Shown one piece after another: positions 1-4,144 of a DNA stretch of 4,144 bases (position 1 is its first letter; each line of letters starts with the position of its first letter). The stretch is from a virus (taxonomy: Duplodnaviria; Heunggongvirae; Uroviricota; Caudoviricetes): the IMG/VR virus record IMGVR_UViG_2639762987_000008. One strand, given 5' to 3'. Made by a program: the position numbers and the translations under genes. The notes under the pieces were generated by a model. It saw nothing but the letters and a program-made list of their open reading frames with translations, did no database searches and was not told where the DNA came from.

Positions 1-32
1 TTTTGAACGTTTCAGGCTATTTTTCTCGCGTT

Positions 33-69
33 AGGTTCCCGCACAGGTTCCCACGTTTTATGGGAACCC
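33..69. repeat. Short repeat cluster upstream of the integrase start: AGGTTCCC at 33-40 and 45-52 (direct), and GGGAACC at 62-68 forming a 7-bp inverted repeat with GGTTCCC at 46-52 (9-nt spacer). Possible integrase arm-type/att-proximal sites or an operator for int.
   Basis: Read directly from the sequence: ttAGGTTCCCgcacAGGTTCCCacgttttatGGGAACCcg. Function is inferred from position immediately 5' of the int start; no core att site can be defined from this window alone. Confidence 0.35.
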
Positions 70-88
70 GAAATAACGAGGTCGTGTA

Positions 89-1496: not shown

Positions 1497-1562
1497 TTAA
1501 TACGTAAAATCGATAACGGCTGGAAATCATTCAATACTCGCACTATCGGAAGTTCACCAGCC

Positions 1563-1603
1563 AGCCGCAGTATTCTGCCATGACAAGTTGCTGCGGCTTT
1601 TTA
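1563..1603 (+). terminator. Putative rho-independent terminator for the int-dinI transcription unit: stem AGCCGCAG (1563-1570) / CTGCGGCT (1591-1598) followed by TTTTTAT
   Basis: 8-bp GC-rich inverted repeat followed by a T-run on the + strand. The loop is long (20 nt), so stability is uncertain. It sits between the convergent dinI-like gene and the 3' end of the - strand operon (stop at 1607-1609). No comparable T-run follows the hairpin on the - strand. Confidence 0.45.
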
Positions 1604-1606
1604 TGT

Positions 1607-1894
1607 TTAACGGATAAACAGCCAGACCAGCAGACACGCCATCACCGGCACAGCAAAATCCATCAGGCTTGCTACATCCCACACGCGCGGATCAAAACCG
1701 CCCCACCACGGCATATTCATACGCTTGCCATGTCCGAACATTTCAATCCAGCGATATTCTGCCTGGGTGTGTTCACGCGCAATGAAGAACGTACAACCGG
1801 CTATCGCCCCGTAAGCCCAGTTTCCGGTAAAAAGGCCAATCAGTACCTGTGCAGCCACAGCACAAAGTGCATGAAGGAAAGGTGTTATATCCAT
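1607..1894 (-). CDS. Small polytopic inner-membrane protein (95 aa, about 3 predicted TM helices), function unknown; last gene of the - strand operon
   Basis: Strong RBS (AAGGAGGAG) 4-5 nt upstream of the ATG at 1894, 10 nt after the TAA of the upstream gene. Hydrophobic segments FLHALCAVAAQVLIGLFTG, AYGAIAGCTFFIA and VASLMDFAVPVMACLLVWLFI. No lipobox or clear signal peptide. The overlapping + strand ORF 1580-2056 looks like an antisense artefact. Confidence 0.7.
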   Translation of the reverse strand: MDITPFLHALCAVAAQVLIGLFTGNWAYGAIAGCTFFIAREHTQAEYRWIEMFGHGKRMNMPWWGGFDPRVWDVASLMDFAVPVMACLLVWLFIR

Positions 1895-1904
1895 TACTCC
1901 TCCT

Positions 1905-2609
1905 TTATCCGATATCGCTTCGGGAAGTTGATAACAACTTTAATTCTGACTCAAGTTCATCAACTCTTTCAGTCAGTTTCTGGATATGGTGAATCAGTGG
2001 AACAACCAGACGTTCGTACATTACACCTTCGGCAACAAGGCCATTGCTGGAAATAGCTTCAGGAGCATCATTCTCGTTAGCTGGTCGCCAGTGAACAAAC
2101 TGAGGGGCAATTTCTCCTACTTCCTCGGCAATCAATCCATAGAATCCCCAATCGCGCCTGTCATTTTCGCATTGCGACCTGTACCACACAGGGCGCATCT
2201 TGAAAATGAGATCGGCGTGCTCCGAATCTATCGTCTCTACTGAATGTTTATAGCGGATAGACGATGTGGACCGCAGTACAGACGAAATTGCGGGGTCAGG
2301 ATTAAGATAAAGGTTTGCCGCCGCTGTAGTCGTGCCCAATCCCCACAAATAAAACGCTTCACGACCAGTCAGCGGGTAAAAATCTCCACCATAACGACCA
2401 CTTTCCAGATCGTTCACTTCCACTTTGTTTTTCAGCTTATTATCAACTTCAGTTTTTGTGTATCTGGTGCTGATATCCTGCTTTGCACTGGTCATATCAG
2501 TCTGAAGCGTTGATACTTTTCCGTTAATTGAGGAAATATCTTCCTTGGCTTTACTGACATCTCCCTTTAACGTGGTGATGTCTCCTGGAATTACTGTCGA
2601 TGTAGCCAT
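1905..2609 (-). CDS. Tail-fibre-like protein, 234 aa: N-terminal heptad/coiled-coil-like segment plus C-terminal intramolecular chaperone domain (peptidase S74 / endosialidase-chaperone-like)
   Basis: RBS GAGGGAG upstream of the ATG at 2609. Motif S-S-I-R-Y-K (aa 116-121, nt 2247-2264) matches the S-x-x-R-x-K autocleavage/catalytic Ser-Lys signature (SDERLK in K1F endosialidase). Downstream GFYGLIAEEVGEIAPQFV ... LVVPLIHHIQKLTERVDELESEL resembles the GVIAQEV...LVPLLIEAIKEL...LE core of the chaperone domain, as I recall it from memory. Confidence 0.78.
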   Translation of the reverse strand: MATSTVIPGDITTLKGDVSKAKEDISSINGKVSTLQTDMTSAKQDISTRYTKTEVDNKLKNKVEVNDLESGRYGGDFYPLTGREAFYLWGLGTTTAAANLYLNPDPAISSVLRSTSSIRYKHSVETIDSEHADLIFKMRPVWYRSQCENDRRDWGFYGLIAEEVGEIAPQFVHWRPANENDAPEAISSNGLVAEGVMYERLVVPLIHHIQKLTERVDELESELKLLSTSRSDIG

Positions 2610-2618
2610 TTGTCTCCC

Positions 2619-2900
2619 TCACATCCAGCCACGAAGTTGATGCTCAACAACAATCGCGTATTTATCGAATATTGACGATTTTTTTGCATCATTAATGATG
2701 CGCACGTTTACAAAATATCCGTCTTCCTTAACACATACCGGTTCGCCATCTTCAGTCAGTTCTCCGCTTTCTTTGTACACGTTACCTATCACGTCAATAA
2801 GAATATCATCCTGCATCGACTCGTCATCATAATAGCCAATACTCTCCATAAAGGCCGAAAAGTCGGCCCTGTCTGCAAATTTGAGTGTTAAATCTTTCAT
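2619..2900 (-). CDS. Small acidic hypothetical protein, 93 aa, translationally coupled to the upstream fibre-like gene
   Basis: Its ATG (2900-2898) overlaps the TGA (2899-2897) of the upstream gene as ATGA; a GGGGAGAG RBS-like sequence lies upstream. Strongly Asp/Glu-rich. Followed 9 nt later by the next gene. No recognisable motif. Confidence 0.6.
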   Translation of the reverse strand: MKDLTLKFADRADFSAFMESIGYYDDESMQDDILIDVIGNVYKESGELTEDGEPVCVKEDGYFVNVRIINDAKKSSIFDKYAIVVEHQLRGWM

Positions 2901-4144
2901 TTAATACTCTCCCCCATTTGCGCATCAGTTAATTCTTTATGCCAGATACGCAGATTACGGATATGACCAAAAAGATGATACTCCCCATTAGTGCCCTGCC
3001 CTCCAATTCGCAATACTGCCCGTGGAACAATTGAAGTCCATGTTGTTTTTGCCGCAACAGATAATTCACCATTACATACGGCCTGAACATCTCCATCAGC
3101 GCCACAACGTAAGCCTGAAATGATTTTCCTCTGGGTTGTTGCCACATATTTATTACACCCTCCCATAGAAATAAAAGGAGAACCGGCATCAGAGAAATTA
3201 TTACCACGGAATCCATGCGTGAACAGACCATTTTCCTGATAATCTTTAACATTAAAGATTAATGGTGATTTGCTGGGAGGGATATCCCAGTTTTTATTAA
3301 CTTCAACAAGAGCACTGAATGGTAATCGGTGAATATTGTTTCTTACAGGTATTGTCACCATGTCGCTGGAGCGAGTGCCAGGAGCCCCTTCAGTAATGAT
3401 AAATGACGTCCTGTACGACCCAATCTCCGCCTGAGGCATCGCAATATCTAACGTAGAGCCATTGGGGATAATACTGATTCCAGGCATCGCCAGGATTTCA
3501 AATCTTGAGCTGATTATCATTTCCNNNNNNNNNNNNNNNNNNNNNNNNNNNNNNNNNNNNNNNNCTGCATCTGAATGAAAAACAAACGCACCATTATCAG
3601 ACATTTTTCCGAACCTTGCACGACACCGGGAATTATCACTTTTCGTCAGACACGATATCGTCGTATAAGAACCTGCCGGGCAGGTGTAAGCATCATTCGT
3701 GTTTACAGCAATTGCCTGATATCCTTGTGCTGTCGGATTTTCATTAATAACAGTTATCCTTCCATAGTTAAACCCATTATCACTGTCGAACGACTCAACA
3801 GACACACTACCCGTGTTATTCCATGCTTCTGGTGTATTTGAATTTCTGAAATAGTTTGTTCTCTGTCCTTCAATCAGCAAACCTTCTCGTTCAAATCGCG
3901 GTTCGTCAACTTCAGCAACGGTTAATACACCTGATTTATTAATGTATGTTGCACCTGATGCGCGTTTGAAGCTAACAACCTTATCGGATGGCATTTTAAT
4001 AACATCATCACCTACAGTTATTTGCTTATAACCAGGCGAAAAGCCAGCAAGCATATCCAGTGAATCGTTAAACGGTATCCACACATCAGGCAGTGGCTGT
4101 AAGACATATTTATACGGCTCTGCTGCCTGGCTTGCATACTCTCT
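2897..4144 (-). CDS. Phage tail-fibre / receptor-binding-like protein with C-terminal LamG-type (concanavalin-A-like lectin) domain; 5'-partial, as the reading frame stays open to the window edge at 4144
   Basis: The reading frame is open from 4144 (upstream of the GTG at 4084 there is no stop: ...REYASQAAEPYKYVLQPLPDV-WIPFNDSL...) to the TGA at 2897-2899. The C-terminal signature ...LRIGGQGTNGEYHLFGHIRNLRIWHKELTDAQM (nt about 2915-2977) resembles the LamG_3 family ending (F.G.IDEVRIWNRALS..EI). Frame is maintained across the N run at 3525-3564. Confidence 0.72.
   Translation of the reverse strand, partial: REYASQAAEPYKYVLQPLPDVWIPFNDSLDMLAGFSPGYKQITVGDDVIKMPSDKVVSFKRASGATYINKSGVLTVAEVDEPRFEREGLLIEGQRTNYFRNSNTPEAWNNTGSVSVESFDSDNGFNYGRITVINENPTAQGYQAIAVNTNDAYTCPAGSYTTISCLTKSDNSRCRARFGKMSDNGAFVFHSDAXXXXXXXXXXXXXXEMIISSRFEILAMPGISIIPNGSTLDIAMPQAEIGSYRTSFIITEGAPGTRSSDMVTIPVRNNIHRLPFSALVEVNKNWDIPPSKSPLIFNVKDYQENGLFTHGFRGNNFSDAGSPFISMGGCNKYVATTQRKIISGLRCGADGDVQAVCNGELSVAAKTTWTSIVPRAVLRIGGQGTNGEYHLFGHIRNLRIWHKELTDAQMGESIK
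3525..3564. other. Run of 40 ambiguous bases (N): masked or unresolved sequence inside the fibre-like CDS
   Basis: Seen directly. The flanking reading frame is conserved, so the run probably replaces 40 real bases rather than marking a gap of unknown size. Confidence 0.95.

Follow-up and report, generated by a model that had tools for sequence, protein, structure and literature searches.

The side-tail-fibre region of a phage-21/mEp460-like lambdoid prophage: a candidate host-recognition apparatus of nested modules

We analysed a stretch of 4,144 nucleotides (nt) from the Caudoviricetes record IMGVR_UViG_2639762987_000008 of IMG/VR (hereafter, the window), in which four genes follow one another on the minus strand: the 3' two-thirds of a gene for a side tail fibre (Stf), and genes for an acidic protein of 93 amino acids (aa), a 234-aa protein with an S74-type chaperone domain and a 95-aa membrane protein. 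Our main finding is that this region is the distal end of a late tail operon and probably encodes a side-fibre host-recognition apparatus composed of nested modules that can be exchanged independently, a reading to which, including the four roles proposed for the gene products, we assign a probability of about 0.6. The order, coupling, domain content, modularity, selection and distribution of the genes are described below as observed, and from these we infer a biochemical role for each of the four proteins. Stf would attach to the tail tip via its conserved N-terminal domain and shaft, and would display a lectin-like, probably glycan-binding tip that is swapped as a cassette. The 93-aa protein, translationally coupled to Stf, would act as an assembly or capping partner in place of Tfa. 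The S74 protein would form a small secondary trimeric fibre that folds with its own S74 chaperone, which would be cut off at Ser116, and would dock by its conserved 32-aa N-terminus onto the long-shaft Stf, yielding a branched fibre with a second specificity. The 95-aa protein, which is not specific to fibres, would come from a conserved bacterial inner-membrane family that phages have taken up time and again and set behind their receptor-binding genes; it would work in the membrane of the infected cell or lysogen without forming part of the virion, and would most likely restrict superinfection or re-adsorption once the receptor has been bound.

The end of a late tail operon

An earlier note on this DNA had described the same four genes as a tightly coupled cassette, an unusual unit directly beside the integrase gene, at a site that it associated with accessory, host-range or exclusion genes. 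The genomic context of the window points elsewhere. The window matches 31 complete Escherichia coli genomes at 100% identity (over a span of 4210 nt, compared with 4144 in the window itself). In the matching genome of E. coli Ecol_881 (locus L001), the window begins directly after dusA, and the sequence beyond position 4144 continues into an ordinary contiguous tail operon. The order of genes in this locus is terminase, portal, protease, capsid, tail genes, tape measure, M, L, K, I, J, Lom and a 782-aa fibre annotated as a ‘prophage tail fiber N-terminal domain-containing protein’, the 3' part of which is the long open reading frame (ORF) of the window. The four genes are the final cistrons of this contiguous late operon, and the host element is a phage-21/mEp460-like lambdoid prophage integrated at dusA. 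The place beside int is an ordinary one, because lambda carries its stf-tfa genes there. An ordinary upstream tail operon was half of what the earlier note had named as speaking against its proposal, the other half being a lack of independent conservation of the four-gene set; some independent conservation does exist, since gene order is invariant in all 79 IMG/VR loci of the window's sublineage (those with a near-identical 93-aa gene).

The actual hot spot for variable cargo in lambdoid prophages lies downstream of the 95-aa gene, in the space between it and int/att (L002, L005, L007, L008, L009 and L019), and cargo begins only after this gene. The cargo includes sitABCD in phage 21, Lambda_2E9 and AR_0081, a type II restriction-modification system with a diguanylate cyclase in EC21Z-144, a reverse transcriptase with a SLATT protein in ETEC4067, and an HNH endonuclease in IdasGreatGrand. 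In the window's own prophage, dinI alone occupies the space.

Within the window, the ORF coordinates and the coding-strand sequence bear out the layout given earlier, with an ATGA overlap followed by gaps of 9 nt and 10 nt, and with the four minus-strand genes facing int (89-1186) and dinI (1248-1496), both on the plus strand. The stf/93-aa junction reads AAATGA, in which the ATG at 2900-2898 overlaps the TGA at 2899-2897, while the two following junctions read TGA-GGGAGACAA-ATG and TAA-AGGAGGAGTA-ATG. A purine-rich Shine-Dalgarno-like site is visible 5' of each start codon, as had been claimed: GGGGGAGAG (2915-2907) for the 93-aa gene, GAGGGAG (2620-2614) for the S74 gene and AAGGAGGAG (1905-1897), which contains the consensus AGGAGG, for the 95-aa gene. 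A sequence scan of the window identified no promoter-like site on the minus strand, and an Rfam search of the window gave no match. The tight coupling noted before was therefore confirmed, but not a stand-alone four-gene operon, as the genes are contiguous with those for the tape-measure protein, M, L, K, I, J, Lom and Stf and lack a promoter-like site on their own strand. A run of N at 3525-3564 (40 nt) corresponds to 106 nt in the matching genomes (L001 23525-23630); this keeps the reading frame and costs the window 22 codons of the Stf receptor-binding region.

Table 1. Features of the window. Coordinates are window positions unless marked otherwise.
Feature	Coordinates	Strand	Basis or remark
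stf, 3' two-thirds	2897..4144; start beyond the window at L001 25245	-	ORF list, L001 annotation
Conserved Stf junction, aa 361-440	3860..4099	-	likely upstream recombination flank of the receptor-binding cassette
Hypervariable lectin-like, presumed receptor-binding region, Stf aa 441-760	2966..3859	-	windowed identity
Conserved Stf C-terminal tail, aa 761-782 (22 aa)	2900..2965	-	co-varies with the type of the following gene
Acidic 93-aa protein (phrog_1361), candidate Stf partner	2619..2900	-	ORF list; start overlaps the stf stop
234-aa S74 protein, secondary fibre-like	1905..2609	-	ORF list, PF13884
S74 protein, conserved N-terminal 32 aa	2514-2609	-	
S74 protein, coiled-coil repeats		-	
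S74 protein, small tip region		-	
S74 protein, chaperone from Ser116	~1908-2264	-	
95-aa three-helix inner-membrane protein (phrog_1443), last late-operon cistron	1607..1894	-	ORF list, AlphaFold 2 model
Hairpin AGCCGCAG-N20-CTGCGGCT, then TTTTAT	1563..1603	+	read directly from the letters; probable dinI terminator

A side fibre, its candidate partner and an S74 protein

Several matches identify the first gene. The N-terminus of Stf, which lies outside the window in the same ORF of L001, contains the Pfam domain PF08400 (phage_tail_N) at aa 3-132 (E 9.9e-67), its first 95 residues match a ‘Tail fiber protein’ chain of PDB entry 9e7m (E 7.5e-49), and the full-length protein matches phrog_1419 (‘tail protein’). 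In the L001 annotation it is encoded after gpJ and Ail/Lom at the end of the tail operon, the position of a lambdoid Stf. The ORF that the earlier note had called LamG fibre-like is indeed a fibre, representing the C-terminal two-thirds of the 782-aa Stf, while its LamG assignment is indirect: aa 435-626 match the NCBIfam family NF048003 (‘GTA head spike fiber’), and the C-terminal 420 residues align at 31% identity (E 1e-37) with the Leclercia fibre Lec_437, which itself matches Pfam PF13385 (Laminin_G_3). No Tfa-family gene was found downstream of Stf, the 93-aa protein matching nothing in Pfam or NCBIfam and no ‘tail fiber assembly’ family among the PHROGs.

Measuring identity in bins along the protein against eight other Stf proteins revealed a mosaic. 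Most shaft and junction bins of the closest relatives are 78-100% identical, and residues 441-760 share 18-50% identity with other Stf proteins, with the exception of one bin (aa 601-640) at 42-60%. Residues 761-782 are again conserved in a manner that depends on the next gene: they are 77-91% identical where the following 93-aa protein is 81-91% identical, compared with 45-64% where the partner is of the 89- or 92-aa type. Among the 79 IMG/VR loci, residues 441-760 are bimodal, with 17 loci at 98% identity or more and 62 at 28-37%. The allele of this region found in the window is present in 149 complete E. coli genomes, all at least 99% identical, as against 31 genomes that carry the whole window. 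Because a hypervariable middle lies between conserved flanks, because its alleles are bimodal and because it is found in many more genomes than the window as a whole, residues 441-760 show the pattern of a putative receptor-binding cassette exchanged between conserved flanks. Together with the swapped S74 alleles described below, this bears out the proposal of a host-range module.

The 93-aa protein is acidic, as had been stated (isoelectric point 4.31; 20 Asp and Glu compared with 10 Lys and Arg). It has no Pfam, NCBIfam family or PADLOC match, and its PHROG match, phrog_1361, is labelled ‘unknown function’; neither sequence nor fold searches returned a known fibre chaperone (Tfa/gpU/gpG, T4 gp38/gp57A) or a fold relative. 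In lambdoid phages, in PhiR41_1 (a phage of 108 kb) and in a P1-like element of Leclercia, LamG-type fibres are followed by homologues with 30-54% identity, and each LamG-type fibre examined, P1-like included, has such a homologue downstream, the start of which overlaps or abuts the fibre stop (ATGA or a 1-nt overlap; overlaps in L002, L006 and L012). Within lambdoid modules, the 93-aa type is 51% identical to the 92-aa type and 34% identical to the 89-aa type. Across 91 locus pairs, identity of the 93-aa protein is correlated with that of the Stf C-terminus (Spearman 0.59), compared with 0.05 for the 95-aa protein. Its ratio of nonsynonymous to synonymous substitution rates (dN/dS; own NG86 implementation, here and below) is 0.42 and exceeds the values of its neighbours. 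Strict co-evolution between the 93-aa protein and the receptor-binding region as a whole was considered and ruled out, as the region can be ~35% identical while the 93-aa protein is ~90% identical and the last 22 Stf residues alone track it. By these comparisons, the 93-aa protein appears to track the conserved Stf C-terminal tail and not the binding surface. Its position, coupling and co-inheritance with the fibre C-terminus are those of a chaperone partner, and we take it to be a candidate dedicated partner of the LamG-type fibre class, an assembly factor or distal cap, at the position of Tfa. In the Leclercia P1-like element (L012 2892-6888), two LamG-type fibre/partner pairs stand in tandem (700 aa + 94 aa, then 437 aa + 95 aa), both preceding the membrane gene; the second fibre is without a shaft, and the tandem may provide a P1-like tail with an alternative tip or a branched one.

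For the 234-aa protein, the S74 chaperone assignment was upheld by a match of residues 116-172 to PF13884 (Peptidase_S74; 27.5 bits, compared with a gathering score of 22). Residues 116-121 (SSIRYK) align with SGIEYK of a T5-type L-shaped fibre (PDB 8hqz, chain d), and by sequence the protein has the catalytic Ser and the Lys five residues downstream (Ser-x4-Lys, S116/K121) of this class; a 346-aa allele reads S-D-R-D-L-K at the same motif. The protein aligns with positions 1147-1384 of the 1385 in the fibre family phrog_3299, i.e. its last 238, and its first 32 residues correspond to residues 1-32 of phrog_4563, a family of stand-alone 346-aa fibre proteins. Three lengths of allele (227, 234 and 346 aa) are found at one position, and the 234- and 346-aa forms are 65% identical over the first 32 residues, compared with 27% over the rest. 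With a median dN/dS of 0.15 (10 pairs) and the 234-aa type present in 746 E. coli genomes, the gene appears to be maintained under purifying selection and not to be a remnant.

Among IMG/VR loci, the S74 gene follows the 93-aa gene of the window type in 79/79 loci and the 89-aa type in 27/29, and the 92-aa type in 0/25. In phage 21, mEp460_4F5 and Lambda_2E9 the 92-aa gene is directly followed by the membrane gene. Its presence goes with the long-shaft type of Stf, not with the phylogeny of the 93-aa protein, and Stf residues 161-320 are 82-95% conserved in loci that have it. Secondary receptor-binding proteins docked through a conserved peptide at their N-terminus have precedent (PMC13352976), as have distal T5-like proteins, with a receptor-binding domain plus intramolecular chaperone, on a proximal fibre (PMC11990801). 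Given these precedents and the co-occurrence of S74 gene and long shaft, the S74 protein is, by analogy, probably a secondary mini-fibre with a chaperone of its own, and would branch from Stf. A four-gene module with the 346-aa S74 allele was also seen in Escherichia ruysiae (L020), where a convergent gene for a Pin/Hin-type DNA invertase lies just downstream of the membrane gene (6522-7109).

Taken together, these comparisons show that the four genes travel together within the window's sublineage but are not one evolutionary unit overall. In the phage 21/mEp460 lineage the S74 gene is absent, the 92-aa gene leading to the 95-aa gene in 25/25 loci; the receptor-binding region with the 93-aa gene, as one block, and the middle part of the S74 gene recombine independently; and the 95-aa gene is also found after P22-type tailspikes, after P1-type and P2-type fibres, after J-like proteins and alone in chromosomes. 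Short 3' remnants of tfa lie just downstream of the 95/97-aa gene at two loci (L003 2768-2902 and L007 4846-4965), which suggests that a block of receptor-binding region, 93-aa gene, optional S74 gene and 95-aa gene replaced an ancestral pair of stf 3' end and tfa by recombination.

The 95-aa membrane protein and the weighing of alternatives

The prediction of a protein with three transmembrane segments agrees with an AlphaFold 2 model of three helices (4-23, 26-52 and 74-94; mean confidence score, pLDDT, 93). The protein carries an invariant motif (REHTQAEYRWI…MPWWGGF), is 59-65% identical to homologues in Aeromonas, Comamonas and Leclercia, and belongs to a family conserved at about 60% across proteobacterial classes. 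Its dN/dS is 0.20, and its gene is present in 1901 of 5426 complete E. coli genomes (35%), often in several copies. A profile search of 1.8 billion representatives yielded 439 clusters, all of small stand-alone proteins (58-146 aa), and no domain fusion. The protein has no Pfam or PADLOC match, and its PHROG match is confined to phrog_1443 (‘unknown function’). When 52 divergent members were compared with Pfam, scattered weak matches were all that resulted (PhoR N-terminus in 4/52, Phage_holin_8 in 1/52), and these stem from hydrophobic segments. PADLOC returned no match to a known defence or exclusion family for any of the four proteins or for DinI. A literature search found no paper characterising the 93-aa or 95-aa proteins; the Eligo paper on lambda STF describes lambda-P2 chimeras only.

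The gene stands directly after the receptor-binding genes of at least six phage types. In addition to lambdoid Stf modules, it follows a P22-like tailspike in phage Gally, at the position of gtrABC in P22; P1-like S fibres; a P2-like fibre with Tfa in Halomonas phiHAP-1, where it overlaps by 4 nt and precedes the sheath gene; a J-like protein in Comamonas; and, in two betaproteobacteria, a putative, unannotated target gene of a diversity-generating retroelement, after which comes bAvd. In the latter two (Comamonas nitrativorans L049 and Pigmentiphaga humi L050, ~4785-6690), the homologue lies between a gene of 370-383 aa and bAvd with gaps of 4-10 nt, so that its gene would lie within the cassette of a diversity-generating retroelement, flanked by the likely target gene on one side and avd on the other. 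Among 63 species-level loci, LamG-type fibres lie upstream of the gene in 8, including one in the alphaproteobacterium Chelativorans. In Gally, the terminator of the tailspike gene (4789-4809) and a promoter-like site (4826-4855) in an AT-rich stretch precede the gene, and in Leclercia near-identical terminators flank it on both sides; signals of its own are not present in this window, where the gap is 10 nt and the minus strand has no promoter-like site. Chromosomal copies occur in Aeromonas and Sphingomonadales, beside pirin/RIO1 or ligA, and their neighbours (pirin, RIO1, ligA, MetE-like, ThiC) include no consistent operon partner.

In Comamonas testosteroni (L011 7300-8521), the homologue is followed, with 4-nt overlaps, by genes for two holin-like membrane proteins (125 and 99 aa) and for a 183-aa protein (phrog_3108) with QES…GFWQFE motifs resembling those of a lytic transglycosylase, possibly a lysis cassette directly after the tail genes. 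The idea of a general lysis cassette, raised by this context and by lydA/lydB in Leclercia, was rejected when a Pfam/PHROG tally of downstream neighbours across the 63 species-level loci showed no enrichment for lysis genes. Nor does the 95-aa protein look like a class I holin: it ends in …VWLFIR with no charged tail, belongs to no holin family and has no endolysin neighbour here. On sequence and context, we suggest that it is a host-derived inner-membrane protein, captured repeatedly by phages independently of fibre specificity and acting in the cell membrane. We would tentatively favour a role in exclusion or in the envelope that does not depend on the receptor, at somewhat less than even odds; the protein may also protect the lysogen, as the earlier note suggested.

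How do these readings fare against alternatives? An autonomous accessory cassette made up of the four genes, resembling a moron, serving host range or exclusion and inserted next to int apart from the tail operon, is suggested by their invariant order in 79/79 loci of the sublineage, by their place next to int and dinI, and by a tight coupling suggestive of co-expression. We nevertheless regard it as highly improbable, as the genes are contiguous with J-lom-stf and have no promoter-like site on the coding strand, the N-terminal two-thirds of Stf is that of an ordinary lambdoid Stf, the S74 gene is missing from modules of the phage 21/mEp460 type, and the 95-aa gene moves on its own. Alternatively, the 234-aa gene might have no function and be what remained of the C-terminus of an older, long Stf after the insertion of a block of LamG tip and 93-aa gene had severed it; such an origin would fit its match to the last part of phrog_3299, a 1385-aa family whose N-terminal part resembles Stf, and the tfa remnants of other prophages, which show that replacements have occurred here. 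This too is improbable, given the low dN/dS, an intact ORF with a strong ribosome-binding site in 746 genomes, a Ser/Lys motif that has been kept, three length alleles that begin at the same conserved Met-Ala/Val-Thr… N-terminus, and S74 alleles that form stand-alone PHROG families of their own (phrog_4563 and phrog_19752). A closer call is whether the 93-aa protein might be a structural component of the distal fibre, a cap or adaptor and possibly the docking site of the S74 protein, rather than a transient chaperone. Some Tfa/gp38-type proteins stay on the fibre, and the 93-aa protein co-varies with the extreme C-terminal 22 residues of Stf and has a dN/dS above that of its neighbours. ‘Transient caps’ are discussed in PMC10579305. 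The distribution of the S74 gene does not follow the phylogeny of the 93-aa protein, being present with the 93- and 89-aa types (34% identical) and absent with the 92-aa type, which at 51% is closer to the 93-aa type, and on balance we find the structural alternative doubtful.

The 95-aa protein might instead serve the lytic cycle, either in holin/antiholin-like lysis timing or by assisting fibres or virions to mature at the membrane, with no protection of the lysogen. Three hydrophobic helices in ~95 aa recall class I holins; here, as in phiHAP-1, Acidovorax and Chelativorans, the gene is coupled to late structural genes or overlaps them; and its next downstream neighbours are lydA/lydB in Leclercia and, in Comamonas, genes for two holin-like membrane proteins and for a probable endolysin. 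Set against this are the absence of a charged C-terminal tail and of a holin Pfam family (a weak match in 1/52 members), downstream neighbours without enrichment for lysis genes, chromosomal copies in non-phage housekeeping contexts, and uncoupled copies that form a terminator-flanked autonomous unit, so that we consider a lytic role rather unlikely. Several observations also weigh against the roles that we propose. The 95-aa gene lacks its own promoter and terminator in this window, where a coupling gap of 10 nt precedes it, and in several phages a 4-nt overlap joins it to structural genes. Such linkage would suit a late role no less than a lysogenic one. Exclusion proteins engaged in an arms race are not typically so strongly conserved, and PADLOC offers no match. 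The 93-aa protein stays ~90% constant while the receptor-binding region falls to ~35%, so it cannot be matched to the receptor-binding surface, and it resembles no known fibre chaperone in sequence or fold. Docking of the S74 protein onto Stf is read from co-occurrence, a pattern that shared ancestry could also produce. A more ambitious combination, in which the 95-aa family (signature REHxQAEYRWI…MPWWGGFD) was captured independently from bacterial chromosomes by tailed phages of at least six receptor-binding architectures as a receptor-independent block to superinfection or re-adsorption or envelope conversion, while Stf, the 93-aa protein and the S74 protein make up a Tfa-free branched side fibre with two swappable specificities, is speculative and, as a whole, somewhat unlikely.

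Neighbouring features, meaning and closest known systems

Between the convergent genes, the plus-strand hairpin listed in Table 1 is probably the terminator of dinI; it has no U-tract on the minus strand, and it escaped our hairpin scan, which was limited to loops of at most 8 nt, because its loop is longer. The ~110 nt around it (window 1497-1606; L001 21493-21573), which include the hairpin itself at 1563-1598 and its T-run, recur in some 4000 E. coli genomes at 83-97% identity, many more genomes than have the adjacent genes, and PGAP labels part of this stretch an incomplete ‘capsid protein’ pseudogene. Between the start of the integrase gene and the 5' end of dusA lie 88 nt (window 1-88; L001 18963-20000), in keeping with the known class of dusA-targeting integrases. 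Further upstream in the late operon, a gene for a 113-aa zinc-ribbon protein (L001 35130-35471) lies between those for the tail assembly chaperone T and the tape measure, the site that is occupied in HK97 by the moron gp15, which encodes an exclusion protein of the inner membrane.

No prophages are commoner in E. coli than the lambdoid ones, and the strains that they reach are determined by their side fibres. It is the module type described here, and not the textbook stf-tfa pair, that is widespread; it is also carried by the classic phages 21 and mEp460, and its 93-aa and 95-aa families are common and uncharacterised, with no known function, family or fold relative. The swap boundaries, at Stf aa ~441-760 plus the 93-aa gene and in the middle of the S74 gene, offer a guide for lambda-based delivery particles with new specificities. 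If the 93-aa protein does represent a new class of fibre partner, it must be transferred together with LamG-type tips; if the 95-aa protein does affect superinfection or the envelope, it would be a very common, overlooked factor of lysogenic conversion.

Among known systems, the 95-aa gene resembles the morons that adjoin genes for receptor-binding proteins (P22 gtrABC, T5 llp, phi80/N15 cor, HK97 gp15, T4 imm) in being small, membrane-embedded in its product and adjacent to such a gene, and in the placing of the Gally copy behind a terminator at the gtrABC position and of the Leclercia copy between terminators. Its product has no sequence similarity to any of these, and its family differs in being far more conserved, independent of the type of receptor-binding protein and represented by chromosomal orthologues, with no promoter of its own in the window. 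The S74 protein shares with chaperone-bearing fibres such as the K1F endosialidase and T5 pb1 a C-terminal PF13884 domain, the Ser-x4-Lys motif and a preceding coiled-coil or beta-rich stalk, but its predicted mature part has ~115 residues and no recognisable virion-attachment domain, and it is encoded separately, downstream of another fibre. In this last respect it resembles branched systems, such as Klebsiella KP32-type RBP1/RBP2 and the T-shaped fibres of BASEL phages, in which a second receptor-binding gene adjoins the first and encodes a short conserved N-terminus and a variable body with independently swapped alleles; LtfA/LtfB of the T5-like phage DT57C are another branched receptor-binding system. 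Here, unlike in those systems, no branching domain was identified in Stf, and docking is proposed from gene co-occurrence.

The module as a whole is a variant of the lambdoid J-lom-stf-tfa arrangement. As in lambda and Ur-lambda, the fibre gene follows J and lom, encodes a PF08400 domain and shaft, and is coupled to a small downstream partner, and the C-terminal specificity region is exchangeable; the differences are that the partner is not of the Tfa family (Caudo_TAP), that the tip is a GTA-head-spike/LamG-like lectin region and not lambda/T4 gp37-like, and that two genes, for the S74 mini-fibre and the membrane protein, are added. Of the relatives described so far, the trio CPT_21_22 to CPT_21_24 of phage 21/mEp460, whose small genes are without an assigned function, comes closest. 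This trio differs from the module described here in having no S74 gene and a shorter, divergent shaft at residues 161-360, but shares with it a homologous Stf, the same gene order and the same coupling, its 92-aa protein being ~51% and its 97-aa ‘putative membrane protein’ ~91% identical to their counterparts in the window.

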